64,000 bases of DNA from a virus. Taxonomy: Duplodnaviria > Caudoviricetes. Positions 1,659 through 31,016 of this stretch are shown here, piece by piece. The notes beneath the pieces are model-generated. The model searched no databases and was not told where the DNA came from. It saw only the letters and a program-made list of their open reading frames with translations. Both the position numbers and the translations under genes were made by a program. How positions within the stretch are numbered: position 1 is the stretch's first letter; every line of letters begins with the position of its first letter. The stretch lies in the IMG/VR virus record IMGVR_UViG_3300021387_000075; one strand, given 5' to 3'.

Positions 1659-2141
1659 ATGGCGACTCCTTTCTTAAAAGTATATGACGCCTTTTTGGCG
1701 CGAATAACCGCCGATGAATGGATGCTAGAAGAAGAGCTCGCCATTGTCGAGCGAGATTGGCAAGAACTTCTCAAAATGGCGGTTGAACGTTTCAAATATC
1801 CACGCGTAAGTTTAGAAATGGAAGAATTAGAATAGCAAGATGAAAATTCTCCCATTACGGTTATGCAATTTAAGGATGATTTAACAAATGCGGAAATTCA
1901 GCTATTAGCCCTTTATATGAAACATGAATGGGTTAAACGCTGTATTGCTAGTTGGGAAAATATTCGTCAATTGTATGTCGATAGTGATTATTCTCAAGCC
2001 AACCATATTGATAAACTATTAAAATTAGAAGCTTCGGTCGCGCTCGAAGTTCATAAAGCAGAGGGACGATATGATAGATCGCGTGAGCACAGTCCTGCAT
2101 CCATCTTTCGAAAGTTAGCAGGAAAGCGCAATAGCTTATGA
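1659..2141 (+). CDS. Putative head-tail adaptor/head completion protein (TAG-recoded)
   Basis: ATG 1659 (MATPFLKVYDAFLARIT...) is in frame with track ORF 1863..2141 through one TAG at 1833 and ends in TGA. Function inferred from position. Confidence 0.65.
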
Positions 2142-2403
2142 AACTTTTAGTGGCTATAAAAATAAATTAAAAGGCCGTTTATACGGCTTACTCTGTGAGC
2201 GCGAAAAGGGTGGCGAATGGGAAAAGTTCCTAGATTCAATTATATTGGAACTTTATGGACTGGGCGCAAATGGTATTAACTGGTGGCCTTTAATTGGTAA
2301 ATTATCTATACTTCGATATTTGTCTTATGAGTATTTTCGTAAAACAATATTTGAATGTATGAATTTAGTAGGCAAATTAGAGGAACCCGATGACCTATCT
2401 TGA
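2071..2403 (+). CDS. Hypothetical neck-region protein (TAG-recoded)
   Basis: ATG 2071 with GAGGG SD and TAG at 2116; reads ...YKNKLKGRLYGLLCEREKGGEWEKFLDSIILEL...YFRKTIFECMNL; TGA 2401-2403. Missed by the ORF track. Confidence 0.6.
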
Positions 2404-3682
2404 TGTATATTACTCGCGCCTAAATCACTTAGGAGAAACAATTGGAGAACGAGTTACTAATGGCGGTATTCGTACATTTTAGCGTTGGAAAGCAGAATCG
2501 CCGCATACGGTTCCAACTCTTTCTGTAGAGCGTGGATTATATTTTGATGGCATTATTTTACAAAGTAAGGATAAGGAATACCAGAAAATTATGCACTTAA
2601 ATGTTTCCAATGATATACCCATTAAGGTCGGAGACATTATGAATTGGCCTTAGAAAGATGGGACAATTGAAAAGTGGATTTTGCTTTCTGAAGAGAAGAA
2701 AGTAAATGGTACTTATCGTACTTTTGATATATTAAAATGTAACTATTTAATTAAATGGGTTAATGATAAAGGCTATTTAAAATAGTCATGGGCTTATGTA
2801 TTAAGTTCAACAGATGATAAAGTTAAAGGTAATTTCCGTACCTGGCATAATTTAATTACGCCACAGCCTAATAAATACGCGGAAATTGTTATGCCACGTC
2901 CCGTAGATATTCATTCAGAAATTGAAAATACGGTGAATCGCGGCACAAACTTTATTATTGAAGATGAAAGCTGGAAAATGGTAGAGGCTGATTTTACGAG
3001 TGTTCAAGGAATACTTTATATGTCTCTAACCGAAAATAAAGTTAATTTTTAGTATGATGATTTAAATGTTGATGTAGCAGATACTGACAAATTAAAATTC
3101 CCTACATTAAATTAGGTTTATAATGTAGGAGACGAGATTGTACCTAATTTTACTGATGAAACATTAAATGAATGGGAAATAGCATTAGTACCTCCAGAAG
3201 TTAAAGAAGGAGAAACAAAATACGTGGATTTTGACAATGGTAGGTTAAAAGCCTTGGCGCCAGGGAAAGTTACTATTAAAATGCGTTTAAAGAATTTTAA
3301 TATAGACGACCATCGCAAAGCCGTAACTAAGGAATTTGAAATTACTATTAATGAAAATGCGGATGAAATTCCATTATATATACAGGGGCCGAATAAAGTT
3401 AAATTAGATAGGTATGCTAATTATTATTTAATTGCAGAAGGAGAAGAAAGTCCTGATGATTTAACATAGGAAATGGCGCGCGCTCGTGTATTAAGTAAGC
3501 CTATTTCTATTAAAGAAAGTACAACTGGCTCTAAAAAAGATAGTATTCAAGAGTATAGTGAATTTCCTAACGTATATATATTCCGTGCTAATGCAGAAAA
3601 TAAATTGGGTAAAATTGTTTTAACTGCTACTTATAACAATAAAGAATATACTAAAACAATTGAAATAATTCCATTATGGTGA
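2390..3682 (+). CDS. Putative head-closure/neck protein with C-terminal Ig-like region (TAG-recoded)
   Basis: Single frame from ATG 2390 to TGA 3682 with TAGs at 2480, 2651, 2783, 3050, 3113 and 3467. Joins track ORFs 3224 and 3473; 430 aa. Confidence 0.65.
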
Positions 3683-3692
3683 GGTGAGATAA

Positions 3693-4199
3693 ATGGCTAA
3701 TGAAGATGCTGGACAGCGCCGATTTGCTGTAATGGGAGATAATACTTTTAGAATTGCTAATAAACTAATGTCTAATAAAGACTTATGTCGTTTATTAAAA
3801 TACCAAGTACGAGATCCTTTAAATAAAGAAAAATATCCGGATGTAGATGGCGCAGAACTTATCAATAGGCAGATATTGATCGTACCAAAAATCTTTGATG
3901 ACAGTACTGAAAAAATGTCATATGTAACGGCTTTATTTAGTAATTTTGTTGTCAATCAATTAAATCCGGAATTTAAAATCTCCACAATCCGTTTCGATAT
4001 AGCTTGTCCTTACGAGGAATGGCTACTTGATGACAGGACTTTACGTCCATATTTAATTATGGAAGAAATTGATAAAATGTTTAATGAAGCAAAGATGTAG
4101 GGCATTGGAACTTTGTAGTTCCGGCGCGCAGATGCTTTAACATTAAGTCCTTGGATTGGTGGATATTCTATGGTGTATCAAATCAATGAATTTAACTGA
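3693..4199 (+). CDS. Putative tail completion/terminator protein (TAG-recoded)
   Basis: Track ORF 3693..4100 continues through TAGs at 4098 and 4116 (KM*GIGTL*FRRAD...) to TGA 4197-4199. Confidence 0.6.
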
Positions 4200-4965
4200 T
4201 AACGAAGTTTTAAAATTTTTAAAAGGATCTCCGGTATTCATTGATGACATTTGTGCGGTGTTTCCTGCAACCTTAGGTCAGATTGTAGATGAAGGCTATG
4301 ATGAATTTCAAAAATATTTAGGTGTTTTGACCGCGACCAAACCCACTACTTAGCATGATGCTGATTAGGAATTAAAGGATTTGATGGCAAAGCTTACGGA
4401 TTTTTAGTACATTTTATTAATGGCCAATCTTGATCCATAGATGCTGTCTATTATGAAAAAAGGTTTTAAATTTTTCACTCACGAAGATGCAATTTTTTCA
4501 ATGGAGCCAGCACAAATTATTATAGGTCCACCCGCGGAGAAACACCTATTAATTGAGGAAAAATTTTATGATTTTTAGCGTTTACTACGAAGAATGTATT
4601 TTCTTGAGACTGAAGGCGAAGAGATTATTATATATGAAGATGATGATCCTCGTACTAAAGCCATAAAGATGAAGATGCGCGAAAATCGAGAAAAAGTGCG
4701 TAGGGCGAAAGCGAAAAAAGCTAAATAGTCTGGAAGTGATATGCAATTTTCAGATTTAATCGCCAGTATTACGCTTAATGATTGTGGCCTAAATATTTTA
4801 AATGTTTGGGATATTACATATTATGCTTTTCATGACCAACTCAAGCGGATGGGGTGGCGTGATCAGTTTGATATAAATTAGCGCGCGGCGCTTGCCGGCG
4901 CAAAGATTCAAAAGTCGCAACTCAAGCATTGGATGCGTTCAATTGCTGATAGCGGCAAGTCATAA
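4186..4965 (+). CDS. Hypothetical tail-assembly protein (TAG-recoded)
   Basis: ATG 4186 to TAA 4963-4965 with seven in-frame TAGs; 259 aa; abuts the SD of the major tail gene. Confidence 0.65.
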
Positions 4966-4982
4966 TTTGGGAGGTAACTTTT

Positions 4983-5972
4983 ATGGCTAGTAATGTTAAT
5001 ATTTTTGATAAGTATGGCATTAAAGAAGTTGCTAACGTATACTTTGAAGCTCTAGACGATGATCTAGCTGCTGGCGTATATGCTGGCGATATCGTGCTAT
5101 TCCTTGATACTCTAAAAGTTTCCACCATTGAGACCACTGCTGAGAATACAGCTGCTCAGGGCGGCTGGGGCAATCCTAAACTAGTACAGTGGGACTATGG
5201 TAAGGAAATCAATATCACTCTAGAAGATGCTCTAATGTCTCTAGAATCTTTACGTTTCATGCTAGGTGGCGCTATTAAAAAGCCCGAAGCAGAAGCTCCA
5301 GTTGTTGTACGTCATACTGAAGAAGTAGTTTGTGATGAAGGCGGCGTACTACCACAGCCAAAAGATCATTTAACTGGTAAGAAAATGACTCCTAAGGCTA
5401 CTAAAAACCATCCAGTTCGTTTAATCAATTTAACAACTGGCACTCGTACACAGATTAGTGCATCTGGCGATACTCCAGTAGAAGTATATGGAAAAGCAAT
5501 TGATTTTGTTAATCCTGCTTTAATTGGTATGACTACCACTGGAGAAGGTAATGAAGCTACTACTACTGCAACAAAAGTAAAGACCGCTAAAGGCGATCAT
5601 ATCCGTATTTTCTGGGAAGAGGTAGTTACCGGTGCTGAAAACCAAGAGAGCGCGGTTGAAGTAACAATTTCTCCTGATACGTTCCCAGGCACCTATCGTG
5701 TTGTTGGCGATACCTTCATGCGTTCTGAGAAAACTGGTAAGGATGAGCCATTCCAGTTTGTTATCAATAAGGCTAAGGTACAGTCCAATGTTACCCTAAC
5801 TCTACAGGCTGAAGGCGATCCTACTACGTTTGAAATGACTCTAAACGTACTACGTTCTACCAACGATCAGGGCGAAAATGAGATGATGAAACTCGTTCGT
5901 TATGATGTTGGCGCAGCTACTGCTACTACTAGCGGGGATGACCAGGGGTCTATTAATAACTCTAATGGTTAA
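4983..5972 (+). CDS. Major tail (tube) protein
   Basis: 329 aa, GGAGG SD, beta-rich; motifs YGIKEVANV, GGWGNPKLVQWD and LTLQAEGDPTTFEM; upstream of tape measure; no in-frame TAG. Confidence 0.75.
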   Translation: MASNVNIFDKYGIKEVANVYFEALDDDLAAGVYAGDIVLFLDTLKVSTIETTAENTAAQGGWGNPKLVQWDYGKEINITLEDALMSLESLRFMLGGAIKKPEAEAPVVVRHTEEVVCDEGGVLPQPKDHLTGKKMTPKATKNHPVRLINLTTGTRTQISASGDTPVEVYGKAIDFVNPALIGMTTTGEGNEATTTATKVKTAKGDHIRIFWEEVVTGAENQESAVEVTISPDTFPGTYRVVGDTFMRSEKTGKDEPFQFVINKAKVQSNVTLTLQAEGDPTTFEMTLNVLRSTNDQGENEMMKLVRYDVGAATATTSGDDQGSINNSNG

Positions 5973-5985
5973 TTAAATAATTAAT

Positions 5986-6021: not shown

Positions 6022-6043
6022 ACATAAAGGTAGGTGAATACCT

Positions 6044-6931
6044 TTGACACATCAATATTTTGGAATAAAAGAATTATATGAAGTATGCTTACGCGCGAAA
6101 ACTAATATGCAATTTGGTGAGCGATATATTGAAGCTGATGAGCCAGTATTGTATTTTGAAAATATTAGTATGGCTATGTTATCGGAGCAAAGCCGAGAAA
6201 TATACGCGCGAGGCGGTTGGCTTAATTAGCCAAAAGTAATATGGCAAGATCGTTCTGAAATACGTTTTCAAATGTCTGAAGGTGTTGTATCATAGTTTGG
6301 CTTGGGCATTCTTTTAGGTGCGAAAGTTGCGATTAAGGGAAAAGAAAAGCCAATCTTAATGCATAAAACCGAAGGACCATTTGATTTTGCTATTGGAGAA
6401 GAAACTCCGCGTATTTATTTAGAGCATTGGCCAGTAGATTATACATAGAAAAAGACATTTATCTTCGAATATGCGCGTGATGCTGTGTAGAAGAAGATAT
6501 ATGGAAAAGCAATTCATGGAGAGTATAAGGATCCATTTGATCCCGAAAAAGAAACTCCATGTGTTGAATTATACGAAGACAAGGAATTGAATATATTGGC
6601 AGACACCAATAAAAAATATATAGTAGATTATTACTATGAGTATGGGAAAGAAGCGATTTCTTATACATTACAAAAAGAGCGCTTCAACGGTTTGTTCTCC
6701 TTGGAAGGAAAGTTCTATTCTAAGGATGAGAATGAGGGCATTAATTATACGAACATATTATACATGCCCAAGGTTAGGATTGTAAGTGATATTAACTTAC
6801 GATTGGGAGAAAGGGCTGATCCAACGGTGTCCGCGTTTAATATAATAGGGTTGCCGGAGACTGTCGGTGACGATAAAGATTTAATAGTTGAGATTTAGCA
6901 TTTGGGTGAGGATTTAGACCCAGATGTTTGA
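6044..6931 (+). CDS. Second tail-tube-like protein, paralogue of 4983..5972 (TAG-recoded)
   Basis: TTG start; joins track ORFs 6044 and 6587 through TAGs to TGA 6929-6931. FGIKELYEV, RGGWLN*PKVIWQD and LRLGERADPTVSAF mirror the major tail motifs. Confidence 0.65.
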
Positions 6932-6998: not shown

Positions 6999-9900
6999 AT
7001 GGCTAATGTTACCGTTGATATATAGGCAAGGGTGGTAGGCTATGAGCAAAGTATAAAGTCATTGCAAGCCGCATTGGCTAAAGTGGATCCAGGTTCTGAC
7101 ATAGGAAAAAGTATTACAAAAGCAATGGAATAGGCGCAGTCTTAGGTGAAAGCATTAAGTAAAAATATGTTTCCTAAGGCATCGAGTGATACTTAGATTG
7201 ATGCAATTATTGAAAAAACCAATAGAGCTGGAGAGGCTATTTAGCAAGTAGCTTCCTTATTATAGAATGTTCAAGTTAGTGATTTAAACTTAGGAGCATT
7301 CGGAGGAGATATTGAAAATTTTAAAAATTAGATCTCTTCTTTATAGACAGAATTAGATAGTAAATTAAATGCTGGGATAATAAAAGCAGTAGGTGAATCT
7401 GAATAGCTAAAAAATGTATTTAAAGAGCTAGGTACAGATTTATCGAAAGCGACTGGCGCAACTTTATTGGAAGATTTGTCGAAAGGTGCATAGAAGGCAT
7501 CTGAAAATGTAGCTGATTTAGAAAAAAAATTAGAAAAAGCTCAAACATCAATTAATAATTATTAGACAATAGATAGCACATTAAAATCTTCTAGGCTTGG
7601 TACTCTTGAAGGACGTACTGCATTAGATGATGAATTAAAAACTATTACAGGTAATTATGACGCAGTTTTTGAATAGTTAAGAGCCACAATGATAAGTGGT
7701 TTTAGCAAATTAAAAACTGATACTAAGTTAGACACAGATGGATTATTAAAAACATTTTTTTCTGATTTAACTCCTGAGAATATTTAGAGTCATATATAGA
7801 ATTTATTTAACACGCTTTCGTCTCAAGGAGTATTTGGAGAAAATGAGAAACGTAAATTCTATGAATCAATTTTTGGCGGTAATGATGAATATAATACTAA
7901 TAATATTAATTTATTAACTAAATCTATTGGATTGGATAAAGCTTATTAGCAATATAAAGCTTAGCTTCAAGAATTTTATCGGAAAATTGCTAATGATATT
8001 GATGGTAAAGATTAGGCGCAAATTAATCGTTTAATTAGTACAGACTAGTTAGACAAGGCTGTAAGTGCGACCACCAAAGCATTAGATAATGCTTATAGTA
8101 AAATATATAATAGCATTAAACAGAATTAGGAAAAACTTAATAGTGCTTTAAGTGATAAAGACAATATAGTACTTTAGCTTAATACAGCACGCTAGACACA
8201 AGATACATTTAGTTCTGCTGAATAGTCATTAAGATAGGAAATTGAAGCCGTACGTTAGGAAAATAAGAATTTAGAAAATTAGATAGCTTAGTTACGTGAA
8301 TAGTTAAATCAAAAATTAAGCGGCGAAGTTGGAAATATTCGTAATGTAGGCACTACTGAAAATCGTAATGTCGGATAGGGTTTCCGTGAATCCTTAGAAA
8401 TAAGCGAAGCCTATAAAAATTAGTTGGCGCAAGTTGCCGCGAAAGAGCAAGCACTAGGAAAGATATAGGGTGTTGTTTAGCGCTGGTTTAGTATTTACGC
8501 AGCAATTCGGATGGTCCGTTAGGCCATTGATTCTGTAATTTCTACTGTTAAAGAATTAGATGCTACTATTACAGAGATTGCTATTGTTACTAGTATGGAT
8601 TAGAGTGAATTATGGGATTAGATGCCTAAATATACTCAATTAGCACGTGATTATGCCGCTTCTATTAGTGGTGTATATCAAGTATCTCAATTGTACTATC
8701 AATAGGGTTTACAAACAGCCGATGTAATGGCATTAACTGAATAGACTTTAAAAATGGCTCGTATATCTGGACTAGATTATGCATAGGCAACCGACTATAT
8801 GACTAACGCGGTTCGTTCATTCAAAATGGAAATGACGGATGCTTAGACAGTTGTTGATGTTTATTCAGCTATCGCCGCGAGTTCTGCTACTAGTGTAACT
8901 GAATTAGCAAGTGCAATGAGTAAAACCGCATCATCAGCCGAAGCAGTTGGAAGTAGTTTTTAGAATACTACTGCTATGATGGCTGTAATGATTGAAGCTA
9001 CTCGTGAGTCTGCAGAAAATATTGGTTCTGCTATGAAGTCTATTATTAGTCGATATGGTGAAATGACTTCTGATCCTTCTAAGTTAGTAGACAGCGAAGG
9101 ATAGGAAATGAGTTTGAACCGTGTTGATAAAGCTTTATAGACAGTAGGAATTAGTATTCATAATGCTGAAGGAGAATTCCGTAATTTTGACGAAGTTATT
9201 ATGGAATTAGCAGAAAAATGGAATACTATAGATACTAATACTTAGCGTTACATTGCTACTATTATGGCTGGTAACAGATAGCAATCACGTTTCTTAGCAT
9301 TAGTTTCTTCTTATGATAGATTGAAGGAATTAAGTACGGAAGCAGCAGAATCTGAAGATGCTTCTTAGTTACAATTCTTAAAAACTTTAGATTCTGTTGA
9401 AGCTAAAACGCAATAGCTTCAAACAAGTATTTAGGCGTTATATGTAAATAGCGGGTTAGAAGATTTTTATAAAAAAGTATTAGATTTAGGCAATAGAGTC
9501 TTAACTACTTTTGATTAGTTAGCAGAGAATTAGGGTTTGGCATTAACGGTAACTAAAATAGGAGCAAGCTTTGTTTCATTAGCAACCTTAGTTACTAATG
9601 CTTTTAATATTATTAAAATGTCATTTTCTAGAACTAAGTTACAAATTATGGCTGAGAGCAAAGCTGCGGCCTTAGAACGTGAATTAGATGCTGCGAAATT
9701 AGCAGCTTCAGAGTCTGCTTATGCACAACAAAGTGCTTAGAATTAGATCAATAGTGAAGATTCGATTACTGCAAATAAGCGAGCTGAAATAGAAGAAAGA
9801 ATCAGATTAGCTAAAAAAGAAGCACAAGAAAATAGTGGTTCTATATTTAATTCTAAATCTGTTCTTAAAAAGACCGGGGGTATGGTTGCTTCTGCCGCGG

Positions 9901-12900
9901 GTTTAGCATTGACTTCTATTGCTGCCCAAAAAGATGTAAATGAAGAAAGATAGACTAAAGCTTTGATGACTGCAATAGGATCTGCTCTTTCTGGAATAGG
10001 AACTTATGGAATGATTGGAGGTATTCCAGGCGCGATTGTTGGTACTATTACAGCCATTCCGGGTATTGTTGAAGCAATAGGGATGTCTACTGAATCTGTT
10101 ACCGATAAAGTAAATCGTTTGAATGCTGCGGTAACTGAAGCTTCAAATAAAACTATTTTAGCTCAAGATGAAGTAAAAACTTTAGAAGATTATAAAAATA
10201 AATTAATTGATTTAACAAGTAAATAGTATGATAGTGCGGAAGCAAAATAGGCATATTTGGATTTAAATAATGAAATTGCTAGTAATTATCCGGAATTAAT
10301 TAGTTATATTGATGAAGAAGGTAATAAAATTATTGCTTTAGGAAATATTTATGATGAACTCTATGAGAAGAAAAAATTAGCTTATGCTGAAGCGGCGAGA
10401 GATGAGGGAAGAGCACGTATCGCCGCAGCTTCTGATGGAAATACTCGGTTGACTAATGCTGGCATAGAAGCACCTTCAAGAAAACTTGATACTTTTTCTA
10501 CCTATATGGCTACAGGAATTAATGCCGCGCAAGAGGCACTTTCTTTCGGTGCTTCGCATATTACTGGATATGGACATACTGATAAGTTTAGTGTTATTAG
10601 TAAAGAAAATGAAGCATATAATTATTTAAGTGATTAGCTTGCTTCTTCTGGTTTTGGTAATATTTTGGAAGCAGCAAAAAGTAATACTTTCGGCGGCGCA
10701 TCCGGCCTTGATATTTATAAGGCTTTATTTGGTAGTAAGTTTAATAAATTTTTTAGTTCTTTTAACCCAGAAAAAGTTTCAGAAATTTTTAAGAATAATC
10801 AATTAGAAGAATTATATTAGTTAGATTCATCTGATAGCGGTTTAACTTAGTTAGGATTTATTATTGATAATTTAATAGCCGCGGATTAGAATTTTCAATA
10901 GGCTAGTACTATTATTAGTCAAATTTTGGGCGAGACTGTCACTATTGATAAAGATTTATATGAATATCGTAGATAGGCTTCGTCATTGCCAGCTGAAGGA
11001 ATTGAAAAAATTATTAAAAATGAAAATAGAAATTTATTTAATAATTTTTCTTCTTTGGATGGTGTGAAATTTTCTTCTGCTTTTGATTAGGAATATTTAG
11101 CTGCAAAATTTCAAGATTCTTGGAAAGCATATGAAGAGCAACATGCAAAAGAATATACAGATGCTATTACTGGAGAAATTGATTATACTGCAATGTGGGA
11201 TGCTTTTTCCTAGAATGCAGAAATTTCAATATAGGAATTAATTCGTGAATATTCTAATACTTTATCTAATTTAGATTTGGGTATTTAGTCTACTCTTGAT
11301 AAATATTTTAAATCACCTTCTGATTATAGTTTGAACGATTGGACAAAATTATTAGGAAAATTAAATTTAGATGAAGAAACTTACAAATTTATGCAGTCTT
11401 ATATTACTGATAGAATTGTTCCTACTATAACTAATTTTAATTCTTCTTTTAAAAACTTAATGGCTAGATATCATATAGATGAGAACTTAATAGATTATGA
11501 AGAATTATCTGAAGGAATAAATCCATAGTTTTTATCTGGAATGTATGAATAGTATGAAAAAGTATTTAGAAACTCTGCTCTTTCTTCTAGTTCTAAGGAA
11601 GATATTATTACAGATTTAAATTCTATATATTCATATATTGGCAGCTTGGATGAAGAATTACGTACTCCTATTTTAGCTAAATTATCTACTGCTGATCTTA
11701 CTTCTCTTTCTGGTATTCATAATTTTATATCAGGAATAGAGGCTATCGAGGGATTTAAATTAGAAGGAACGAATTTAGATGATAGTTTAGATAAATTAAA
11801 ATAGCATATTAAAGTTAATATTCCAACAGAAATTAGTTAGATGTTGAATTCTTATTCTGATGGCTTATAGTCTTTAAGTGATCTTTTAAGTAAAGCTAGT
11901 AAAGGAATGAGCCTTAAAGATGCTATAAAAGCAGTAGATTAGTTTGGAATTACTTTAGCCGATTTTAATTAGATTGGAGAAAAATTTTATTTAAAAGATT
12001 TAACTATATTAAAAGATTAGTATATTAAAAATAATAATGAATATTATACCGAATTATTATAGCAAATTAATGATTAGGCTGATTTTTACAAAGAAAACTA
12101 GCGTATTGGTAAAACAGATTATTTTGATTTTACAAAATATAAGGATTTACCCACTCCAGAGGAAAGACGAGCTTATTATGAAGAATATGCTGCAGAAATA
12201 TAGGAAATGGTTCCTCTTTTAAATACTTTTGATAAATTTGATACAACTGTAACAAATAGTACAGATACTAGTTTAGAATAGTTATCTAAAGGAATGCAGT
12301 CTAGGGTATTAAATAGACAAAAAGATTTTAATTTAAATAAATTATTAACTAATAAAACCGCGGATGATTTTACAGAAATATCCAATTTTATTGATGAAGA
12401 ATATGCTACATTGCTTTCCGAAAGTGGAATAAATGTCGAATCTTTAAAAAACGATATTAAAGCTTATTTAAATAATGCTAATGAAGGAGAAACATTTTCT
12501 GAATACATTCGTCGTACTTTAGGAGAATAGTTAGCAAATGTTTATAATGCTTCCGAAGAAGCAGTAAATTATTTATTAGCATCAACTGCTATTTCCCAGG
12601 GTAATTTAGATAGTTTATTAGATTTAGTCTTTGGAAAAGAAGGCGCAGAAGGAGCGATTAAAGTTGATCGTGAAACTATTAAGAATTAGATTGCTATTGG
12701 AGAAACGGATAATTTACCGAAAGAACTTCAAAAATATTCTATTCTAATTCAAGATACTTTTAAATCTGTCCGTGAAACTACAATTAATGCTTTAATATCT
12801 GCGATTGGAGATGGATCTACTTAGATTAAAGTTACAGATTTAAATAAAGGGATTTTAGAATAGCTTAAAGGCAAGCAATGGATTGAAGGCGATATAAAAA

Positions 12901-18900: not shown

Positions 18901-21900
18901 CTTAGTCACTAATAATTGCAATTGGTACTGCCGAAGAAACAAATAAAACTTCTAAGTTAATTGAAACAATAATGAATGATCTTATTATCATTGACGATAA
19001 AAAGAATATTCCAATTTCAATTACATTGGGCGATGTTGATGATTTAATAGATAAGTTATAGAAAATTGCAGCGGCATTAAAAGAAATTGCTGGAAATGCT
19101 AATACACCTATTGATATAGGGGCTCCGGAGGAAGAAACACCTAAGGGGAAGGAAGGGGAGACTCCTGAGAGTGAAACACCTGAGGGAGAAAATCCTGATA
19201 CCAATGATTAGAATAATACTAATTAGCATCGTACTCAAAGTGAAGAATTACCTTCTCAATCAGAAGAATCTTCAGAACTAACACCAATAAAGAAAATTAC
19301 AGATGAAAGCGCTGATGCATTTGCAGAAGCAACTAGTAAAGCTGCAGAAGGTTTAGATCAACTTAGTAATGCAGGGAATAATGCCGAAAATGCAATTACA
19401 GATATGACGACTGCTAGCCAAGCTGCAAATGAAACATAGGCAACTACGCCTTAGACTGAAGAAACAGTAGAAAAAGTAACGGCTGAACAAGCGACAACGT
19501 CGACATTAAAAGCAGAAAATGCAGAAGCAGCACAAGCTACCACAAAGACAATTAATGCAGAGTCTGGTACAGCAGACAACGTTACTGCTGAAAGTGTAGA
19601 TACTGGTGGAGAATCGGTCAAACTATAGGCCGAGGTGGATACTTCAGCCGCTAACTTAGAAGGATTAAAGGCTAAATATGAAGCTGAAATTTCAAATTAG
19701 CCAGGCGATATGGACGGACTAACAGCACGTTACACAGCAACAGTTTCGGGCCTGCCACCAGATCATATTGAAGGCACTGTTCATTATAGCGCAACATATG
19801 ATGGTGCTAAAGCTCATGGTAACTTTGGTCTCGCCTCTGGCACTCTTGGTCATATAACCGGTCCTGCTCATGCTCGAAGTACTCTTATGGGCGAGCTTGG
19901 TCCAGAACTTGTAGTATCTAATGGTCGTTACTTCGTAGTTGGTCAAAATGGCGCAGAAATGGTTGACCTAGACAAAGATGCAATTGTCTTCAATCATTTA
20001 CAAACTGAGCAGCTTTTAAAGAATGGGATGTCTAAAGAACGTGGCCGTGCTGTTACCAACGAGCGTAATGCGGTTGCATTTGCTAAAGGTAATATTAGCG
20101 GTGGCCCGGCTATGGCATCTGCATCTGCAGCCCTGTCAGCCTTAAAGCAACTTCGCTCTATGTGGCAATCTCTATTAAGCGCAACTGCAAAAGACCTTGC
20201 TGGTCTCGGTGGATCCGGCGGTGGTGGCGGTGGCGGAAAAGATAAAGGAGGTAAGGGCAGCGATGCTAGCCGTAAATCCTTTATTGAAGACGTTGAACGC
20301 TGGTATAACTTAATGCAAGAAATTGCTAAGTTGGAAAAGGTAATTAATCATGAAGAAACTCTTCGTGCGAAATTAGAGGGCGATTTGCATAAAAATGGTA
20401 GTGCTTATTATAAGAGTTAGAAAGAATCGCTTTCTGCCATTCAGAGTGAGATTAAAGCTCAAGAAGAATTAAATATTTCTCGGCGTGAATACTTTAATCA
20501 GAGGCGCAAGCAGCTAAATAAAGATAATGGACCATTTAATCAACTTTATGAGTTTGATGAACAGGGACAATTAAAGCATAAAAATAATACAAAGATTAAA
20601 GGTTCCAAAGCAACTAGTGGATATGAATTCTTAGCGGACTTAATGGCGCTAGATCCCAATACTGGTAAACCTAAATATACCGTTGAATAGCAATATAAGA
20701 TATTGAAAAAAGCTGGTTTCGAGAAGTATATGAAATATGACTCTTCCGGTAATGAAATTAAGCTTGGTGGAACTGATAGTGATGATGGTCCATCTGAAGA
20801 TGATTACAATACTTATTATAGTAGCATGGTACAGGCTTTTTGGGATCGAGTGGAAGCGCAGAAAACCGAAATGCAAACATTATATGATAGTGTAGCTGAA
20901 GGTGAAAATAATTTACTTGAACTAGAATAGCAGCGCAATGAACTCTTACAAGCCATGTATGACAATTAGAAAGAACTAGAAAATTCAGTTTTAAACGCAA
21001 TTGAGGACATGAAGCAACGTGAAATTGATGCTTTATAGGATGAGCGTGATAAGCTAGAAGAGGCTACTGGCAAGTATATTGAAGGTTTAAGCGAAGCATT
21101 AGATAAAGAGCGTGAGATGTATGATACTCAATAGAATCAAAACGAGCTTGATACCAAGAAACGCCGCTTAGGTATCTTATAGCGGTCAGGCGCGAGCGCA
21201 GAAGATATTTATTCGCTTCAAAAGGAAATTACCGAATCTGAAAAGAATATGTATTTCGATACTCAACAAGCGCAGATTGACGCAATTCAGTAGGCTTCTG
21301 ATTTGGAAATTGAACGCTTGGATAATCAAATTTAGATTATGCAAGACACGCTAGATTTCTAGAAAGAAATGGGATTGCTATGGTATTAGGTTTATGATGT
21401 AATGGGTAAATCTAATGCAGAAATTACTCAGTTTGTAATGGGTAATGATTCATAGTTCTGGAGCAAATCTCCATTAGAAAGTGCCCAAACTTATGAAGAT
21501 ACTATGTTTAAGGCAAGTCAATGGACTGATTTTAGAAAGGATCAAGTAGCTATGGCTACAAATAAGAAAATAGATGAGTAGACTGAAGCATTAAAAGAAG
21601 CTTTATCTTGGGATTAGAAAACTTAGACTGCCGATGCCTTTAATACCTATGCGGGAACAATGGCTAAAAAGCATGGTGAAGATTGGGATAAAACTGGAAA
21701 ATATAAAGATATCTTTGAAAAAACGTTTAAAGACACTGGTGATAGAACTAAGGCCGCAACCGCTGCATCTGAAGCTTTTGAAAAAGATGAAAAGTGGAGA
21801 TAGCGTGAAAAAAATGGTGGTAAGAAATTTATTGGTACTAAGGAATATGAATATATTCCTATTGATGATACTTATCACTGGACTTATAAATATAAGTATT

Positions 21901-22700
21901 AGAAGTATGGCGGCCTAAGTGCTGAGCATTAGGGTAAAACTGAATGGTTCTTTGTTTCTAAGAAAAAAGAAAAGCATGAATGGGAAAAAGGTAAGTGTAA
22001 ATTATGTAAACGTAAAAAGCCGAAGGAAACCGCATCATCTAGCGGTGGCGACAACGACTGGTCACCAAGTAATTGTAATGACAGCTGTTCAGGGGCTTGT
22101 AAGGGCTCTGGAGAAGGTGGAACGGGATGCTCTAAGAATTGCGCGAATGGGTGCAGTGGAGGATGTAAGACGGGATGCTAGAACACATGTACCAATTCAT
22201 GTAAAAACAGTTGTTAGGGTGGTCCTAATGATAAAGATAATCCTTCTAAATATGCTGGTACTAGTAATACATGTAAAGCTGGATGTATAGGAACATGTGC
22301 GGGATATACTGGTTCAAAAGCATCCGGCGGATATGTAGGCCACGGTATTTATGAACTTGGTGAGCGAGGTACAGAAACAGTTCTTACTGCCTAGCAAACC
22401 CGTGTTCTTCGTAATAATATTCTTTCTAATAAACCAAGTTCTCTTGTATCGTTATTAAAAACTTATAACGAGGGCTTCTCAATGAACTAGAGATATGGTG
22501 TATTAAAAAGCGTTGGTGAGAGTATATCCTCTACAACTAATAATACATCTGGAGGAATTACTATTGAAAATGCCACGGTTAATATGAATATCCAAAAGAT
22601 AGCCAATGATTATGATGCTAAGCGCGCTGGCGAACAGGCATTAAATGAAATGCTTCGTATTGCTAATAAAACAAGCGCGGCAAATAACATAAGGAGGTAA
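6999..22700 (+). CDS. Giant tail tape measure protein, about 5,233 aa (TAG-recoded)
   Basis: Twelve track fragments (9537, 9963, 10257, 11331, 12294, 13098, 14295, 15552, 17307, 18528, 19710, 20703) share one frame. The gaps I translated contain only TAG stops (not every gap was checked). TP901-type core at about 8.5-9.4 kb (VKELDATITEIAIVT, LYYQ*GL, ATRESAENIGSAMKSIISRY) and C-terminal GELGPE/GERGTE motifs; ends TAA 22698-22700. Confidence 0.85.
22074..22298 (+). repeat. CxxxC repeat inside the tape measure C-terminal region
   Basis: CNDSCSGACKG...CSKNCANGCSGGCKTGC*NTCTNSCKNSC*GG...TCKAGCIGTC; 14 Cys, mostly every 4th residue. Confidence 0.85.
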
Positions 22701-22708
22701 AAGGAGTA

Positions 22709-24547
22709 ATGGCAGATTATAACGTATTAGTGGGGGAAGAGACGGAACATCCAGTTCCGTTTTCTACCCAAGTTTATAAAGTAACTCATAATGGAAACAA
22801 ACGGCTTCCTTTTTTGAGACGCTCTTTTATTAGTTTTACATACGGCGAGGACGCCTCCGGGCGTCCCGTCCCAATTGAAGACTTTAATCTAATATCAACA
22901 TTTGATGGAGATCGTTTATCTAGACAAGCTTATGCCTCCTTTAATGACCTAACATCAAATTATGATGTTATACATGGGCAATTCTTTTGGGGGAGTTATT
23001 ATACCAATAACTCCCTTACCTTTAAACTTGCAACTGACGAAATGTCTCAGGAGGATTTGGATAGGTTTAAGTATTGGTTTAAAGCAGGGACAGTTCGTGA
23101 GTTAGTCTTAGCCGAACATCCAAATCGCGCTATAATGGCACGTGTAGCATAGCCACCGGAAATAGATTTATTGCCATTTGAAAAGCGTGTAACTGTACAC
23201 CTAAAAGAAAAGGAATTCCAAACTAGTACAACCGTCTATCGCGGCGAAATTACTTTGGAATTAACAATGGATGATCCATTCTGGTATGCGAAATAGAATA
23301 TTTTAGGTATCTAGGATGCTAATGGTAATTATGAAAGTGAGGACTGGGTCGATGCTAACGGCGTACAAACTAGTATTTTAGAATCAGAAGATGCTATTAA
23401 AATTATTTATGAAGATCATATTCCTATTGGCTCTCAAATCAATGTTGGTGTATTCTTGGGCGGTAATCTGTATGCTACACTTATTTATGAACCTTATTCT
23501 CGTGTTGCTACAAAAATTTCAGAGAACGATTACTAGGAGGCCTAGAAAAAAATAACTGGTGATGAAAGATTAAGACGAGCATATTTAGTAGTACCAGAAC
23601 CAGTAATAAATAAAGAGACTGGAGAACAAGAAATTGACCCAGAAACAAATGAGCCCGTAACTTAGCCAGTCTATTATATGGGTGCATATGTAGCTGATGA
23701 AGAAACATGGCAATAGTACGGCGCTTTAGTCGCCGGCGCGCAGGCTGGTCCTTCAAAGAGTGGTGCTTAGGGCATTCCTTTGCCACCTGGAGACAATAAT
23801 CCTGCATATTTATACTATGCTGGAACAGCGCCATCTCCTGTTAAAATGCGTTTTACTCTTAAACCTGAGTTTAATAGTGCTGATTATATAATTACTCCAC
23901 AAAGTAAAATATCTAATCCGGATTAGCCTTATAATACAATTACTCTTGAAGCGACAAATAAGCATGAATTTAAATTTACATTACCTGCTTTTTGGCAAAG
24001 CTATAATTACGTATTATAGATATTTGATAATCGAGATATTATTCGCGTTGGAAACGCTTGGCTTACAGTGCGCGAAACCATTCGTGATACTATTCGTCAT
24101 CCAGCGGTAAGATAGTGGGCGAATTATGTAATAGACCAAAAGGAAAATAATGGAGCAGGTATTATTCTGGAAGAAGATAATATTGAAAGTACAATTACCT
24201 TTTTAAAAGATGGAATGAAGGAAATGCTTATTGAAAATAACAATCCTTATCCTGCTCATTTTACTTTTGACGGTCGTACCGGTGAAGCTATAGGAGAATT
24301 CACTTATAAGACAATTAATGGTAATAAAGAAATTTCCGAAACCACGTCCGTAGAAAATGTCGGAGATATGGTGAAGAGTAGCTACTTAATTTTAGATGAA
24401 AGAAATGTCTTAGATTCCCAGTTCCGCATACAACCATGGAGTGAAAATACTCCACAGTATACATATAAGATTACGCATGATTTGTCTAGAAATGTAGCAG
24501 ACGGACTGGAAGATGTACATTTTGAATTTAAAAATATGTATCTATAA
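22709..24547 (+). CDS. Distal tail (Dit-like) protein, 612 aa (TAG-recoded)
   Basis: Track ORFs 22709 and 24215 are in frame through TAGs. Contains YRGEITLELTMDDPFWY and YAGTAPSP and follows the tape measure. Confidence 0.7.
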
Positions 24548-24570: not shown

Positions 24571-27500
24571 ATGGCTGAGACTTATAATACAATACGCAGC
24601 TATGAAATTTCTATTTGGACGCTTTAGGACAGGTTTTTATCTGTCCTGAAGTGGGCCAATATGAGTTAGAAAGGGCAATTACAAGATCCGGAAATGACTC
24701 TGCGCGATGACGGTACGGAAGAATTAACTTTTACAATTCCGAAGTTTTATTGGAGTGGGCCGGATAAAATTCCAAACCCTATGTGGCTGCAAGTAAAAAA
24801 AGAGCCAATTGAGGCGAATATGCACAAGTTAAAGGTTATCTTTAACAAAAATGATGAAAATGAACGAGTATTTGAATTTTTAGTTGTATCTGTTGATAGC
24901 GGGCACACTAAGGATGAAGTTGATATTTCTGTAAAAGCAGAAGGGTTAGCATTTCATGAACTTGGAAAAGTCGGATATAAGATTTCTTTATCTCAAACTA
25001 ATTACGAACTCGACTTGGAAGAATGGATTAATAATGGAATGAAAGGCCCGAAACCTGAGGAAACAATTTAGTATTGGAATGATAAGCTGTTTGTAGATGC
25101 ACGCGGAAATTAGCGTACTAATTGGACTTATGAAGTACAAATGGATTGGTCTTCATATAGTCAAGGAAATAGCGCATTAAAAGATCCGCATAAGGTATAT
25201 GAGGATGAATATGTATCTTCATGGCAAGTGGATGAAGAAGATGATACTAAATTGCTTCCTAAATATGTAGAAGGCTATAAAGAAAAGTGGCGGCCAATAG
25301 AAGTCTCAGCTAGTAACTTATATAATATTACATAGCAAATTGCTGAACAATTTGGAGTCTTTTGCCGCTATTAGTATGATTATGATGAAAATTATTAGAT
25401 TATTGGAAGACGAGTTATCTATTACAATAATTATATTAAAGATAAAGAAGGACATATAGATTTAACCTATCCTTATTCATCCACTAGTATTACTCGTAGC
25501 GTAGATAATAGTTAGGTAACAACTAAATTATATGTTCAAAATGTTGATAATGATACGATGGGTACTATTTCTATTATGGAAGTAGACGCCAATAAAAGTA
25601 AAGAAGACTATTTGCTTTGCTTTGATTATATGCGTGATGTAGAAGGTGTAAATGAGGATTAGTATGCTGAAATTGCTAAGTATGAAGCATTAATGCATTA
25701 GTATAATGCTAATCTTATTAAGATACAAGAGCGCATTAGGGTAATTAGTGATTAGTTGGTTGAATTAGAGGCTAAGGCTAAAGTATATGAAAATAGTCTT
25801 GTTGAAGATAGTGAGAGAATAAATGAAGCTCACGCTGAATATATGGGCCTAACAGATGGTCAAGGAGAAGTTAAATATGATACGTCTCGTACTGTAATGG
25901 AAGATAAAACATATGGTAAATATGTTAATCTTTATGTTAATGGTGTAATTCCTAATACGATACATTTATATAAAGAAGCTAATTATACAGCTATGAAAGA
26001 TGAAACATAGTATAAAGGCTTTATTGAAGTATTCACTCCTGATTTAGATGAAACTAAGCAATATGCAATTAGATTACGTAATATTTAGTATGCTGGATTA
26101 AATGCAGGTGATACTATTTATTTAAGCGCGAATCGAAGTCCATATTCTTATTATAAAGATTTAGAAACTTTGTGGACGAATCGGGAAGGGATGGACAAAG
26201 CTAATTTGGAAAAAACAAACAAAACAGTAGAGTTATATAATTGGTATTTAACCGGTTCGCGCGTTGGGTATGGCAAGGTTGGATCCGCAGAAGCGGATGG
26301 ATCTTATGAAGGATTAGCTATTACCGCGCCATTTGATGATCTAGAATTATTAAATAATTTTGCCAATACTCATCCGTTTGTAAGTTGGTCAGTAGATCAT
26401 ATGCGCGCAGGTGTTTCTGAAGATACGAACTATGATGTTGATGCGTTTTTAAATCACGATATTTCTTCTATAAGTGCTGATTTATATTATTTCCAAGACT
26501 ATTTCCTTGATTTGAAATCTTTGTTAAGTGATAAGTTTGAGCGCATGATGGGCCCTGCTTTACGCGAAGGCTATTGGCAACCAGATGATTATCACGATTA
26601 TGGAGATATGTATGAATCTACATTTAAATTAAGTGCTGCACCGGAGGAAAATATTGATTCTAATGACTTAAAGGGATTTATTGAAGGTTCTCTAGTACAA
26701 GCATTGGCGCGAGATGAACAATTATCTCCGCATATGCAAGTTATTTGGGATTGCAATAAGTATTATGATAATGAAACCCCGTTAGTCTATGAATCATCTA
26801 TTAGTGGCAGAAAAGATTAGCATTTAATTGTAGATATAAGTGAAAATTTAGATTTTGTAAAAGATCATTTGGATGACTTATGTTTTATTTATAGTGATCG
26901 CTCGTGTGTATAGACTATTTATGATATTCAAGAGAATAAAGTACCAAATTTTGCTCAGTATTTAAAGAGTTTTCATAATGGCATGTATCCAAATACTGAT
27001 AATAGCGCCGCTGAAGCAGAAACTAGTCATGATTATTATAATAAATTAGTACGTTTAATTGGACTTATATCAGATACAGAAGCGGATGAGAAGGCAAATC
27101 TGGTCAGGGAATATTTTAATGCGATAAAAGCATTGAAAACCACGGCAAAAGAAGTACGTGATGGTAATTAGGAATCGGGAAAAGAAGTGCCTGGCTATGG
27201 TTCAACGCCTTATTATATAGTAGATAAGATATTAACATTAGAAGATTTAACTGCACCTGTTGAAACATTAAAGGCGATTATTGAGCGACTTAGCAATATT
27301 AGCAATGAACTAAGTAAATTAGAAGATGCTTATTCTTCGAAGCTCATGAGCGCGAAGACTGATGAAAAAACTTTTATCGAAGCAGAATTAGCGAAAATTC
27401 AAGCTGCACATGAATATTTAGCTTATGTTGATAGTCAAGTTATGTCTGGTTAGAATACAGATATAACTATTGATGATCCCAATTCAGAAAATTATACTAC

Positions 27501-30500
27501 AGGAGATAGAGGCTTATTGACCATTATGCGTCAATACTTAGTATATCTCCAATGGATTGAATCTCTAGAAAAAAACCGTTTCTAGTATTATCAAATAAAT
27601 TCTGGATGTGAACTAGGATGGCTTATTGATACAAATTCCGAATCTACTTCTGACGAACCCAAGATAAAACGTATTCCAGTATTGATTATTACTGGTGCAG
27701 ACGTTTTAGATGATGATACTATTCGCTATTTAGTAAAAGGAGAATATGCGATTTATAATGGAGAAGGACTCTAGCAAGAAACAACCTATTCTAAACCTGT
27801 TGCAGAAAAGTATCGTCCATTCTTCGGATATTATACTACCACTGAATAGAAAGATAGTACTACTGGCTCAACCTATACTGAAAGGATACTTAATTATGGG
27901 CCATCAATTAACGATAGTCAATATATTGGTGCCGGTAATGAAGATTCTTAGTATTTTACTCGTAATTTAACTAAACATTTATATGACACTTTTAAATAGC
28001 CTGATGCTGATGAATATCGTTATCGTCGGGTATACCCTCGTATTTATTTTAATACGCTTAAACTTAAATCTGAATCCTCTGACATTCATTTGAGTATGAA
28101 TGAAAAGTTGTTAGAAGATTTCAAAGACTATTCTCTTGTTCCAGATGATAGATCAAAAGGTCAAAAACTTCAAGGTATTGGCTATTATTTAACCATTAAA
28201 CCGCATTTGCTATTTAAAAATGGTGAAGCAGAAAATGAATTTAAAATAGTATATACTTTATCTAATGCCGATATTTCTATCTATTTGGATGCTTTAAAAG
28301 TCTTGCGCGAAAATGCTTATCCAAAAGTTTCTTATAATGTGGATGTAAGTATTTTAAATCCAAAGTTTATTGCTACGGCTTATGATCGTTTAAATCAAAT
28401 AGTTCATATTAATGATAACGATTTACAGTTAGAAGATGCTAACGGATATATTTCATCAATTACAATGAAATTAGATCATCCATGGGAAGATTAGATAGAG
28501 ATTAAAAATTATGAGACTAAGTTTGAAGACTTATTTACTACAATTGTTGCTTAGACAGAAGCAATGTAGCGTAGTTAGTAGGGCTTGAATAGTGTATTGT
28601 AGGCTTTCTCGCGCACTACTGGCTTACTTGATAAGGACGTATTGGAACGCAGCTTGGTAAGTGCTAACTTAAAATTAAAATTCGATACGGCTGGCCGCGT
28701 AACATCAGATGAAAATGGTATTATGGCTATATCTGAAGATGAGAAAAGCGCAATTGCTTTCCGCCCAGGTGGTATTTTTACAGCGTATGAGCATGATACT
28801 AATGGAGAATGGATTTGGAATACTGGTATTTTACCAACAGGCATTAGCGCGAACTTTATTAGCGGTGGATAGTTAGATATTAATAAGATTAAATTATACG
28901 CTGGTGATTAGTTACGATTCTAGATGAATAGTGATGGCTTGTTTGCTTATAAGTCTTTCTCTACTAATCACGCAAAGAAAGATTTCGCGGTCAAACAAGA
29001 TATAGCAGAAGAAGATATAGCGCCGGAAAAGACAGATTTTAAGCAATATGTAGTCTTTAATTCAGAAGGTTTATTCTTAACCGCGAAGCAAGGTGCGCTA
29101 TATAATACGCAAAAAACTAGTACAAGCGATAATGAAATAAAATATCAATACGCGATAACTGAGAAAGATATCAATCGTGTTGAAATTAGCTGGGATGGTT
29201 TAAAATTACGTAACTGGGCTGGTGAGGAGGTATTCTATGCTGATCCAGATACTGGTAATTTAACCCTTAGCGGCACAGTTAAAGCAGATGGAGGTAACAT
29301 AGCTGGCTGGGAAATTTTAGGTAATGTCTTGTCGGGCGATCATATTAATTTAATTTCTCATACGAGTGATGAGGGTAATGATATAGCGGGCATTGTGCTT
29401 ACTGATCAACCAAAGTTACAAGATACTAAATTAGATCCTTATACTGGGAAAATTTATTTCGTATGTGAATGCTTCATTAATGGAAAAAAGACAACTGTTT
29501 ATTATCCTGATCCAGTTATTGGCTCTTTAAGTGTTAAAGTAAAACAAATATATAAAGACGGTAATGTTGTTGCTTATGTTACTCCCAAGTATATCAAAGC
29601 TGAGACAATAGCTACTGGAAGTAGCACTGAAGTACTTGATAAAGAGACAAAAGACCCTGTAATAACATACGCCGCAGATGCCGAGACTAAGTTATATATT
29701 ATGGCTGATGCGGGTTTAAATTAGTATGTTTATTCAGATAATAAAAAATTAGAGTATGATGGGGATAATACTTTAACTTCTTATTGGTATACACGCATGA
29801 GTAACTAGGAATCATTAATTACAAAAATAACTGTGCCTGCTATTGTGCCATATGATTTAAATAGTGATACCACGGTAGTTTTAACACCAGTCGGTGAATC
29901 AAAAGTAACATTCCAGGTTCAAGCAAGTACTGGTAAAACTATAATTCATAGCGGACAAATTGGCGGTTTTACAATTATGGATGATGCTGTTGGAACATTT
30001 ACTGGTGGTAAAATTGCCAATAGTGAATTTGGAACAGATAATAAAATTAATGGTATTAACTTAAGCTAGTTATTCTATGACGTTACAACTGATTCAACAA
30101 CAGGAATTGTTAGCTTAAAAAGAGTAAATGGTAACAATGTAAATTTTAATATTGCCGCTTTACAAGCTTATAAAGATATGCTAAGTAAAGTGGCATCTAT
30201 TAAAATTAAATTTAAAGTTTCTAGCGATGGTTAATAAAATGGCCAGACCGTATAGTAATATACGGAACAAACATGGTGAACCGGTAAATGCCGGGTGTCG
30301 AATTAACATTTTATTGTAAGAATAGGAAATGATTCTGCATAATTCGGCTAACGGGGAACCCTACGTCTATGGATATGGCAATCCCGTGCCAAGCTTAATT
30401 GAAGGTGTAACGACTATCCAGCTAGGAGTAGGGTTGTGGTGAAATTCCGCAAGCCGAAGCGCCATGCCCCAGAAATGGGTGAAGATATAGTCTGATTCAT

Positions 30501-31016
30501 AAAGAAATTTATGAGAAATTGCAATATTTAACTGCCACAGCGATAAGTGCTGATGGGACCGAATTTAAATAGACAGTATTAGCAGAAGATAATGGTAAAA
30601 GCAAAATAAAAATAAGTAAGTATAAGGGAAAAACATTAAAGTTTACTGCAACAAATGATTATGGTGCAAAGATTACAAAAACATATAAAATTACAGATGA
30701 TAGTACTATAAGCGGATATACAAATGCTTGGACAGAAGGATGCTCTACTTGTGAAGGCCAATGCGGAAAGAACTGCGCTAATGAATGTGCGGGATTATGT
30801 GGAGGTACGTGTAAAGGAGGATGCAAAGGTGGGTGTTCTGGCTGTGGCAATTAGTGTTCCACAGGATGTACTGAATCATGTTCTTCTGGCTGCGATGGAC
30901 AATGTAAAGGAGATTGTGGTTGGGACTGTTCCCATGAGTGTAGCAGCGGTTGTGGAAATAGTTGTCGTCGTGGTTGCGGTAACAATTGTGATAGTTCAGT
31001 TGACAATCATGATTAA
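24571..31016 (+). CDS. Tal-like tail-tip protein, about 2,051 aa after splicing (exons 24571-30231 and 30522-31016; TAG-recoded)
   Basis: ATG 24571 with AGGAGG SD; one frame broken only by TAG up to 30231. Motifs SNLYNIT*QIAEQF, NYETKFEDLF and GISANFISGG*LD. Removing the intron gives the in-frame join KVSSDG|QYLTATAIS, ending TAA 31014-31016. Confidence 0.75.
30232..30521 (+). ncRNA. Group I self-splicing intron (ORF-less, 290 nt)
   Basis: Exon ends UGGU pairing with GCCA (U.G at the 5' splice site). P2 CCGTATA-GTAA-TATACGG; P3 CATGGTG/CGCCATG; P4 CGGGGA/TCCCG; P7 GACTAT/ATAGTC with AAGATATAGTC; P9 TCATAAA-GAAA-TTTATGA; terminal G at 30521. Confidence 0.9.
30741..30989 (+). repeat. CxxxC repeat, 22 Cys in 83 aa, at the C-terminus of the tail-tip protein
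   Basis: CSTCEGQCGKNCANECAGLCGGTCKGGCKGGCSGCGN*CSTGCTESCSSGCDGQCKGDCGWDCSHECSSGCGNSCRRGCGNNC. Confidence 0.9.

Follow-up and report, generated by a model that had tools for sequence, protein, structure and literature searches.

This locus raises the question of what the triplet TAG means to the phage that carries it and how that meaning is brought about. The stretch analyzed here (the window) comprises 64,000 nucleotides of the IMG/VR virus record IMGVR_UViG_3300021387_000075 (Duplodnaviria; Caudoviricetes), and from position 1659 to position 31016 its plus strand is shredded into short open reading frames (ORFs) when it is read with translation table 11. A preliminary description of this DNA had proposed that TAG is reassigned to an amino acid, almost certainly glutamine, across the virion module, with a suppressor tRNA(CUA) encoded outside the window. 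In this report, we conclude that UAG is very probably a glutamine codon in a rumen siphophage of ~180 kb, of which the window contains the late module and the replication block, and we describe both a long-armed suppressor tRNA and three sister phages that appear to read the same codon as glutamate.

When TAG is taken as a sense codon, the fragments on the plus strand join into a tiled set of genes resembling an operon. The ten TAG-containing late genes of this region hold 232 in-frame TAG, compared with 223 CAA and CAG codons, and not one internal TAA or TGA; each has a single TAA or TGA, which is its terminator, and none of the late genes ends in TAG. Thus, the claim that these frames are broken by TAG only was borne out, and the observation that would have spoken against reassignment, TAA or TGA interrupting the frames at similar rates, was not made. 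Coverage of the region by plus-strand ORFs of at least 60 amino acids rose from 40.6% with code 11 to 98.4% with TAG as sense, whereas controls in which TAA or TGA was made sense reached 54% and 44%, respectively. GGAGG-like sites precede most starts, so that the Shine-Dalgarno sites ascribed to the joined genes are largely there, but some starts lack them. The motifs quoted in the preliminary description are all present, with asterisks marking TAG: LYYQ*GL (TAG at 8703), AGNR*QSRF (TAG at 9279), SNLYNIT*QIAE and ISGG*LD. The tandem TAGTAG at 28576 is likewise in frame, within the tail-tip gene, and three more such tandems occur in the tape measure gene. In the latter gene TAG outnumbers CAG by 163 to 26, and a depletion of CAG in TAG-using genes is expected if CAG-to-TAG changes are synonymous. 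The base 3' of TAG is C at a frequency of 0.19, versus 0.10 after other codons, and this raised C may weaken termination. Together, these counts confirm that the in-frame sense TAG codons of the late genes are real and beyond chance. The fragmentation by table 11 is the sole support for the opposite view, that the TAGs are untranslated and the region consists of decayed pseudogenes, an assembly artefact or ordinary genes with occasional read-through. We regard that view as having a negligible probability, because the tape measure gene runs through 5233 consecutive codons without TAA or TGA while the other frames of 6999-22700 carry hundreds (171 and 355 TAA, 44 and 348 TGA), because 45 related loci conserve these frames with in-frame TAG while ten standard-code relatives conserve them with Gln codons, and because a matching tRNA(CUA) exists. 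Pseudogene decay in particular was rejected on the stop counts.

The identity of the amino acid was addressed by aligning the window proteins, with X at each TAG, at the codon level to 58 related phage loci. The IMG/VR relatives are 165-190 kb in size, several with terminal repeats; ten of the relatives have no in-frame TAG at all, and two of these ten are complete genomes that lack tRNA(CUA). Conserved columns were defined solely from the ten TAG-free relatives, which removes circularity. A locus search based on the distal tail protein (Dit) gave only two loci, and the downstream regions of eight relatives were used instead. Opposite the TAG sites of the window, the 58 loci have CAA 409 times, TAG 364, GAA 234, AAA 138 and CAG 135, so that tabulating the aligned residues, as had been suggested, shows a Gln codon to be the commonest and not random residues. 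The maximum-likelihood residue for the TAG of the window is Q, with a log-likelihood (lnL) of -6148, followed by E with -7475, in a test whose substitution profiles came from the same data set. In the loci that read TAG as glutamine (Gln-type loci, the window included), the 16 Gln columns contain TAG 282 times, CAA 236 times and CAG 78 times, a TAG share of 47% (282/596), and the 55 Glu columns contain TAG in 13 of 2,426 cells (0.5%), along with 40 CAA/CAG and 2,141 GAA/GAG; in each non-Gln class of columns, TAG takes up at most 1.4% of the cells. The core of the tape measure protein, which has 16,571 homologues in a representative library, many of them 3,000-5,744 amino acids long, provided a further comparison. 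Among the best 150 of these, the residues at sites 569, 749 and 761, which the window writes as TAG (8703, 9243 and 9279), are Gln in 127/141, 146/148 and 137/138 cases, respectively, and are therefore near-invariant Gln columns; since some of these distant homologues were possibly translated with code 15, we treated this test as secondary. The first and third of these sites are those at which the preliminary description expected Gln in its tape-measure motifs. The maximum-likelihood residue, the counts in Gln columns and the distant homologues all agree on glutamine.

An apparent excess of TAG on Glu columns in the full alignment was traced to three loci and is gone in the Gln-type loci alone. 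In these three IMG/VR loci (L050, L054 and L055), TAG stands on Glu-conserved columns 13, 27 and 13 times and almost never on Gln columns, and maximum likelihood strongly favours E (in L054, lnL -5193 versus -7581 for Q). With the columns defined from the TAG-free relatives, the three loci together have 35 TAG, 90 GAA and 27 GAG in Glu columns, and 2 TAG versus 41 CAA/CAG in Gln columns. At 29-58% of their TAG sites, the 150 distant tape-measure homologues show E. The tRNA(CUA) of this Glu type is a class I molecule of 74-75 nt with G1.U72 and A73 and resembles the tRNA-Glu of these phages (Table 1); its U11:A24 and U13.G22 pairs are common to several isotypes and are therefore compatible with Glu but not diagnostic. 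As judged from these alignments, the three loci appear to read TAG as Glu. Borges et al. (10.1101/2021.08.26.457843) saw only TAG-to-Gln and TGA-to-Trp reassignment in phages, and we found no report of TAG-to-Glu in phages in the literature searched. In a tree of seven structural genes, the Gln, Glu and standard states require at least seven changes, and the Glu type falls in two places; this is a quick tree of one module, in which recombination is possible.

The existence of these sister phages makes it necessary to consider that the phage of the window also reads TAG as Glu, or as a mixture of Gln and Glu, all the more as three of the 24 TAG sites of the window in the tape-measure core lie on Glu-conserved columns, where its CAA/CAG never lie. 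In the Gln-type loci, however, TAG stands to CAA/CAG as 282:314 in Gln columns and as 13:40 in Glu columns, and TAG is thus not enriched on Glu columns. Furthermore, Glu is never seen at the invariant-Gln sites 569, 749 and 761, the tRNA(CUA) of the window is long and has a tRNA-Gln end, unlike the shorter type of the Glu readers, and the window is nested in an all-Gln-type clade of 26 rows in the structural-gene tree. We consider a Glu or mixed reading in the window's own phage very improbable.

No tRNA gene is present within the window. The source contig (ENA ERZ12302816 NODE_79, 179,871 bp) was found by an exact-protein look-up and is 100% identical to the window over an overlap of 10,560 bp; walking along it with three further exact-protein look-ups led to an array of 17 tRNA genes, the first of which is a tRNA(CUA) (L110:1762-1850). 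The suppressor that had been postulated outside the window is hence encoded ~35 kb beyond its position 64000, on the replication-gene strand. This tRNA is 89 nt long, scores 51.7 bits to Rfam RF00005 and has U1:A72, G2:C71, G73 and an extra arm of 21 nt; at the tRNA(CUA) itself, Rfam gave only the tRNA family and no ribozyme. Ten related Gln-type genomes (11 with the source contig) have a tRNA(CUA) of the same design, of 85-93 nt, in which positions 1 and 72 form U:A or A:U or are mismatched and G stands at position 73 without exception. This weak 1:72 pair with G73, which belongs to the identity of bacterial tRNA-Gln, is therefore common to all 11 long tRNA(CUA) and is also found in the tRNA-Gln and tRNA-Trp of these phages. 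The remainder of the molecule departs from tRNA-Gln, with the anticodon CUA (A36) and a variable region of 18-26 nt versus 4-5 nt. The array of the window lacks both tRNA-Gln(UUG) and tRNA-Gln(CUG), which leaves the CUA tRNA as the one Gln-type tRNA in it.

The extra arm of these molecules carries a 7-nt loop, YUCUGAR, that reads CUCUGAA or UUCUGAG in 11/11 distinct sequences and that equals the anticodon loop CUCUGAC of the phages' tRNA-Gln(CUG) except at position 38. The loop is closed by C-G, and the pair that follows is either C-G or G-C and thus shows a compensatory change. As MAFFT put the long tRNAs out of register in both acceptor and extra arm, these pairs were tabulated with the sequences anchored on the motif. 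Similarity of the tRNA(CUA) to each isotype is ~0.5-0.7 for all of them, with or without the extra arm, and is uninformative on ancestry. In the literature searched, we found no description of a suppressor tRNA of 85-93 nt with an extra hairpin resembling a Gln anticodon. Two Rfam motifs of unknown function were detected in the tRNA array, cow-rumen-4 (64.6 bits; L110:1319-1381), ~380 nt upstream of the tRNA(CUA), and cow-rumen-3 (120.9 bits; L110:4619-4765), and ARAGORN called a tRNA-Asp with the unusual anticodon AUC (L110:4102-4174) in the window's own array.

A tRNA of this length, with its 18-26-nt extra arm, G73 and G2:C71 and a global similarity of ~50% to Ser or Tyr tRNAs, might also be charged by a seryl-tRNA synthetase indifferent to the anticodon, in which case TAG would be read as Ser (or, for another class II tRNA, as Leu or Tyr). 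The alignments oppose this, as TAG occupies 2/1,158 cells of Ser columns, 0/1,911 of Tyr columns and 4/3,226 of Leu columns in the Gln-type loci. So does the tRNA itself: apart from the long arm, it does not conform to class II, for its 1:72 pair is never G:C, as it is in most of the phages' Ser tRNAs (G1:C72 with G73 in 9/14 by ARAGORN's call), and its position 73 is G, while A73 is found in all three Tyr tRNAs, together with G1:C72, and in the Leu tRNAs, together with either G1:C72 or G1.U72. The Gln anticodon-loop motif of the extra arm is absent from the arms of the Ser and Tyr tRNAs and occurs in 1/22 long arms of Ser, Leu and Tyr tRNAs, the one being a Leu tRNA. Such a class II reading is, in our estimation, extremely improbable; Ser, Leu, Tyr and Trp were all rejected as readings of TAG on the near-absence of TAG from the corresponding columns (3/847 cells for Trp).

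How, then, is this tRNA loaded with glutamine? The search for tRNA-CUA, glutaminyl-tRNA synthetase (GlnRS) and release-factor genes that the preliminary description had recommended succeeded for the tRNA; in five complete relatives, no gene with a release factor 1 (RF-1) domain or of GlnRS or glutamyl-tRNA synthetase (GluRS) type was found. With no phage synthetase in the complete relatives, a host enzyme must load the glutamine, and this enzyme is most likely the host GlnRS. Amber suppressors are reportedly charged by E. coli GlnRS, in studies attributed to Yaniv et al. in 1974 and to Rogers and Soll in 1988. Suppressors charged in this way include supE tRNA-Gln(CUA), su7 tRNA-Trp(CUA) and tRNA-Ser(CUA) with an altered acceptor stem; GlnRS accepts a tRNA in which a CUA anticodon is combined with G73 and a weak 1:72 pair, and, as the engineered tRNA-Ser illustrates, a long extra arm is no bar to Gln charging. 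These laboratory suppressors differ from the phage tRNA in that they are not known to have a second anticodon-like loop and in that charging was reportedly measured for them and is deduced for the tRNA here. We propose, tentatively and at somewhat less than even odds, that GlnRS accepts the phage tRNA(CUA) by way of three elements, the Gln-type acceptor end, U35 and the CUG loop in the extra hairpin, the YUCUGAR loop perhaps supplying the G36 signal that is missing from the CUA anticodon.

The main alternative to direct charging by GlnRS is an indirect route, in which a non-discriminating GluRS would load Glu, GatCAB would amidate it by way of U1:A72, and the extra hairpin would be a relic of a duplicated anticodon arm or serve in processing or stability. 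The indirect GluRS/GatCAB pathway is used by many Bacillota, and GatCAB reads a weak 1:72 pair, with which the pair of the tRNA(CUA) fits; moreover, the Glu of the sister phages is the default product to be expected if amidation failed, and the stem of the extra hairpin is very short in half of the tRNAs. In contrast, the sole hint of a host points to a family that has GlnRS: a related capsid gene, 73% identical, lies on a 47-kb contig (L151; JAZQTG010000088.1) in a metagenome-assembled genome (MAG) bin of the Acutalibacteraceae, and glnS is present in that MAG and in 30/31 sampled genomes of the family. In addition, the Glu-reading tRNA(CUA) is a separate molecule (class I, G1.U72, A73) and not an acceptor-end variant of the long one, and the invariant YUCUGAR between variable flanks, together with the compensatory change in the closing stem, speaks for a loop under selection. 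We judge the indirect route unlikely, though it deserves to be kept in mind. Returning to direct charging, we speculate that the clade changes how TAG is read, as stop, Gln or Glu, by exchanging suppressor tRNAs and that the Gln tRNA is two-headed, its CUA arm reading the codon and its extra CUG loop winning GlnRS; as a whole this scheme is a conjecture that we hold to be possible and somewhat less probable than not.

The distribution of TAG among genes is highly uneven. In the low-copy late genes, about one in two Gln codons is TAG, and in the tape measure TAG reaches 3% of codons. The genes of the two most abundant virion proteins have almost none across the relatives, the capsid gene at 2/18,962 aligned codons and the tail-tube gene at 5/17,704 aligned codons, and the replication block is TAG-free as to sense codons. 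Recoding across the virion module, as originally claimed, therefore holds for ten late genes and not for the capsid and tail-tube genes, which are TAG-free in the window, and it is not exclusive to the module: sense TAG also occurs in the RuvC-like and GIY-YIG genes of the minus strand within the window and, beyond the window, in a radical-SAM operon and an 826-aa gene. That TAG is so strictly kept out of the capsid and tail-tube genes suggests a cost of suppression to the proteins expressed at the highest levels, TAG presumably being selected against where translation demand peaks. We propose a temporal gating, in which the replication and early genes would be readable by the host's standard code and the TAG-containing genes would become translatable once the phage tRNA(CUA) accumulates. 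As a terminator, TAG is used by 1/29 minus-strand ORFs of at least 100 amino acids, the DnaB-like gene, in which read-through would add only four residues. A reading of TAG as sense throughout the window creates long spurious antisense ORFs over the standard-code genes, such as 49472-50596 on the plus strand, with 374 amino acids and 9 TAG.

Several points weigh against the reading of TAG as glutamine by way of a host-charged suppressor tRNA, or against parts of it. The tape-measure TAG sites at amino acids 582, 655 and 702 are on Glu-conserved columns, at which Gln is the second commonest residue; going by the alignment, they fit an ordinary Glu-to-Gln replacement and are outweighed by the other evidence. 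The amino acid at TAG is deduced from alignments alone, and the temporal gating from gene classes. The host is known only by the weak hint from MAG binning (Acutalibacteraceae). In half of the tRNAs, the stem of the extra hairpin comprises no more than 2-3 clean base pairs, and the hairpin projects from the position of the variable arm, which puts its contact with the anticodon-binding domain of GlnRS in question. Finally, no recognisable tRNA(CUA) was found in the complete Gln-type relative G004 (the record of L023, with its tRNA region at L093), which has 27 in-frame TAG across the aligned genes.

The features of the window, and the two Glu-type tRNA genes of the relatives, are listed in Table 1.

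Table 1. Features of the 64,000-nt window and tRNA(CUA) genes of Glu-type relatives
Feature	Position	Strand	In-frame TAG	Remarks
Major capsid protein (HK97 fold)	16..1131	+	0	14 CAG, 0 CAA
Small late gene	1210..1653	+	0	no family match
Late gene	1659..2141	+	1	phrog_3853
Small overlapping late gene	2071..2403	+	1	
Late gene	2390..3682	+	6	
Virion structural protein	3693..4199	+	2	phrog_6123
Late gene	4156..4965	+	7	homologue annotated tail assembly chaperone in some Bacillus phages
Major tail (tube) protein	4983..5972	+	0	9 CAG, 1 CAA
Tail tube protein paralogue	6044..6931	+	5	phrog_2729
Tape measure protein	6999..22700	+	163	5233 aa; PHROG tape-measure families
Gene at distal-tail-protein position	22709..24547	+	11	612 aa; role from gene order alone
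Tail-tip (Tal-position) protein	24571..30234	+	34	1887 aa; role from gene order alone
Group I intron	30295..30514	+		Rfam RF00028, 56.4 bits (gathering score 50), E 1e-13
Cys-rich ORF	30519..31016	+	2	
RuvC-like gene	31443..32192	-	5	Pfam RuvC match just under cut-off
GIY-YIG nuclease gene	33536..34570	-	7	
DnaB-like helicase gene	46065..47660	-		ends in TAG; TAATAA four codons on
Glu-type tRNA(CUA)	L100:846-920			
Glu-type tRNA(CUA)	L101:6071-6144			

The AlphaFold model of the capsid protein (predicted local distance difference test (pLDDT) score of 71.7) matches the lambda, YSD1 and HK97 capsids and encapsulins with a Foldseek probability of 1.0. The product of 4983-5972 has 33-36% identity to proteins annotated 'major tail protein' or 'tail tube protein' in Tsamsa-like Bacillus phages, and its role is assigned by homology, its model (pLDDT 56.5) being too poor for a structure search. 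Match lengths had raised the suspicion that some relatives carry an insertion or intron in their tail-tube gene, which was not borne out. The 'tape measure' label of the preliminary description is backed by matches to eight PHROG tape-measure families (best E 4e-40) and by the location of the gene, which follows those for the tail tube and chaperone and precedes those for the tail tip. The usual rule of ~0.15 nm of tail length per tape-measure residue would predict a tail of close to 0.8 micrometres. The 'Tal' and 'Dit' labels found no family match and no PDB sequence match, gene order being their sole basis; more generally, Pfam gave no matches for ten late proteins, PDB sequence searches gave none for the capsid, Dit-position and Tal-position proteins, and a DNA search against deposited phages gave one weak match. 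The group I intron sits between the tail-tip ORF and the Cys-rich ORF, the latter probably being exon 2 of the tail-tip gene. The TAA that ends the tail-tip ORF, at 30232, may be intronic. From 31 kb onward, the minus strand encodes Pol III alpha, gyrase A and B, DnaB, RecJ and NrdD.

Phages of animal guts that use code 15 (TAG to Gln) are already known and include crAss-like, Lak, Garnet, Agate and other phages (10.1101/2021.08.26.457843; PMC9523058). As in these phages, in-frame TAG in the window is concentrated in structural and late genes, the replication genes fit the standard code, the tRNA(CUA) is phage-encoded, close relatives use the standard code, and there is no phage synthetase, so that charging by the host is presumed; the temporal gating proposed here is also the model published for code-15 phages. 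The window differs from those listed in belonging to a ~180-kb rumen siphophage with distant Tsamsa-like kin and a 5233-aa tape measure, and in having sister lineages that read TAG as Glu. The kin in question, the Tsamsa/PBC2/Kirov-like Bacillus siphophages, share the homologous tail tube protein (33-36%) and a homologue of the 4156-4965 product (22-27%) and are alike in late-gene order, genome size and tape-measure families; they differ in using the standard code, in showing negligible DNA similarity and in that the tape measure of the window is far longer. The Glu reading itself has a parallel in the nuclear code of peritrich ciliates (NCBI table 30), where TAG also means Glu. However, that code is eukaryotic and nuclear and covers both TAA and TAG, whereas the sister phages recode TAG only, by way of a phage tRNA(CUA), and in a host that presumably uses the standard code.

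The window is thus a further case of the known code-15 phages, and the core claim is in itself unsurprising; what is added is the confirmed tRNA with its two heads, the avoidance of TAG by the capsid and tail-tube genes throughout the clade and the split between Gln and Glu among close relatives. For the annotation of this abundant group of rumen phages, the consequences are practical: standard gene calling destroys the virion module, the 5233-aa tape measure included, and blanket calling with code 15 mistranslates the Glu-reading sisters and makes spurious antisense ORFs in the standard-code block. A clade in which closely related phages read TAG in three ways, using two suppressor tRNAs that are unrelated to each other, amounts to a natural experiment in the re-coding of the host, and the extra hairpin resembling a Gln anticodon offers a concrete and testable idea of how a host synthetase may be recruited. 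If true, the two-headed tRNA would answer how code-15 phages get their suppressor tRNAs charged, and, if the reading of the sister phages is true, TAG as Glu would join the phage codes.

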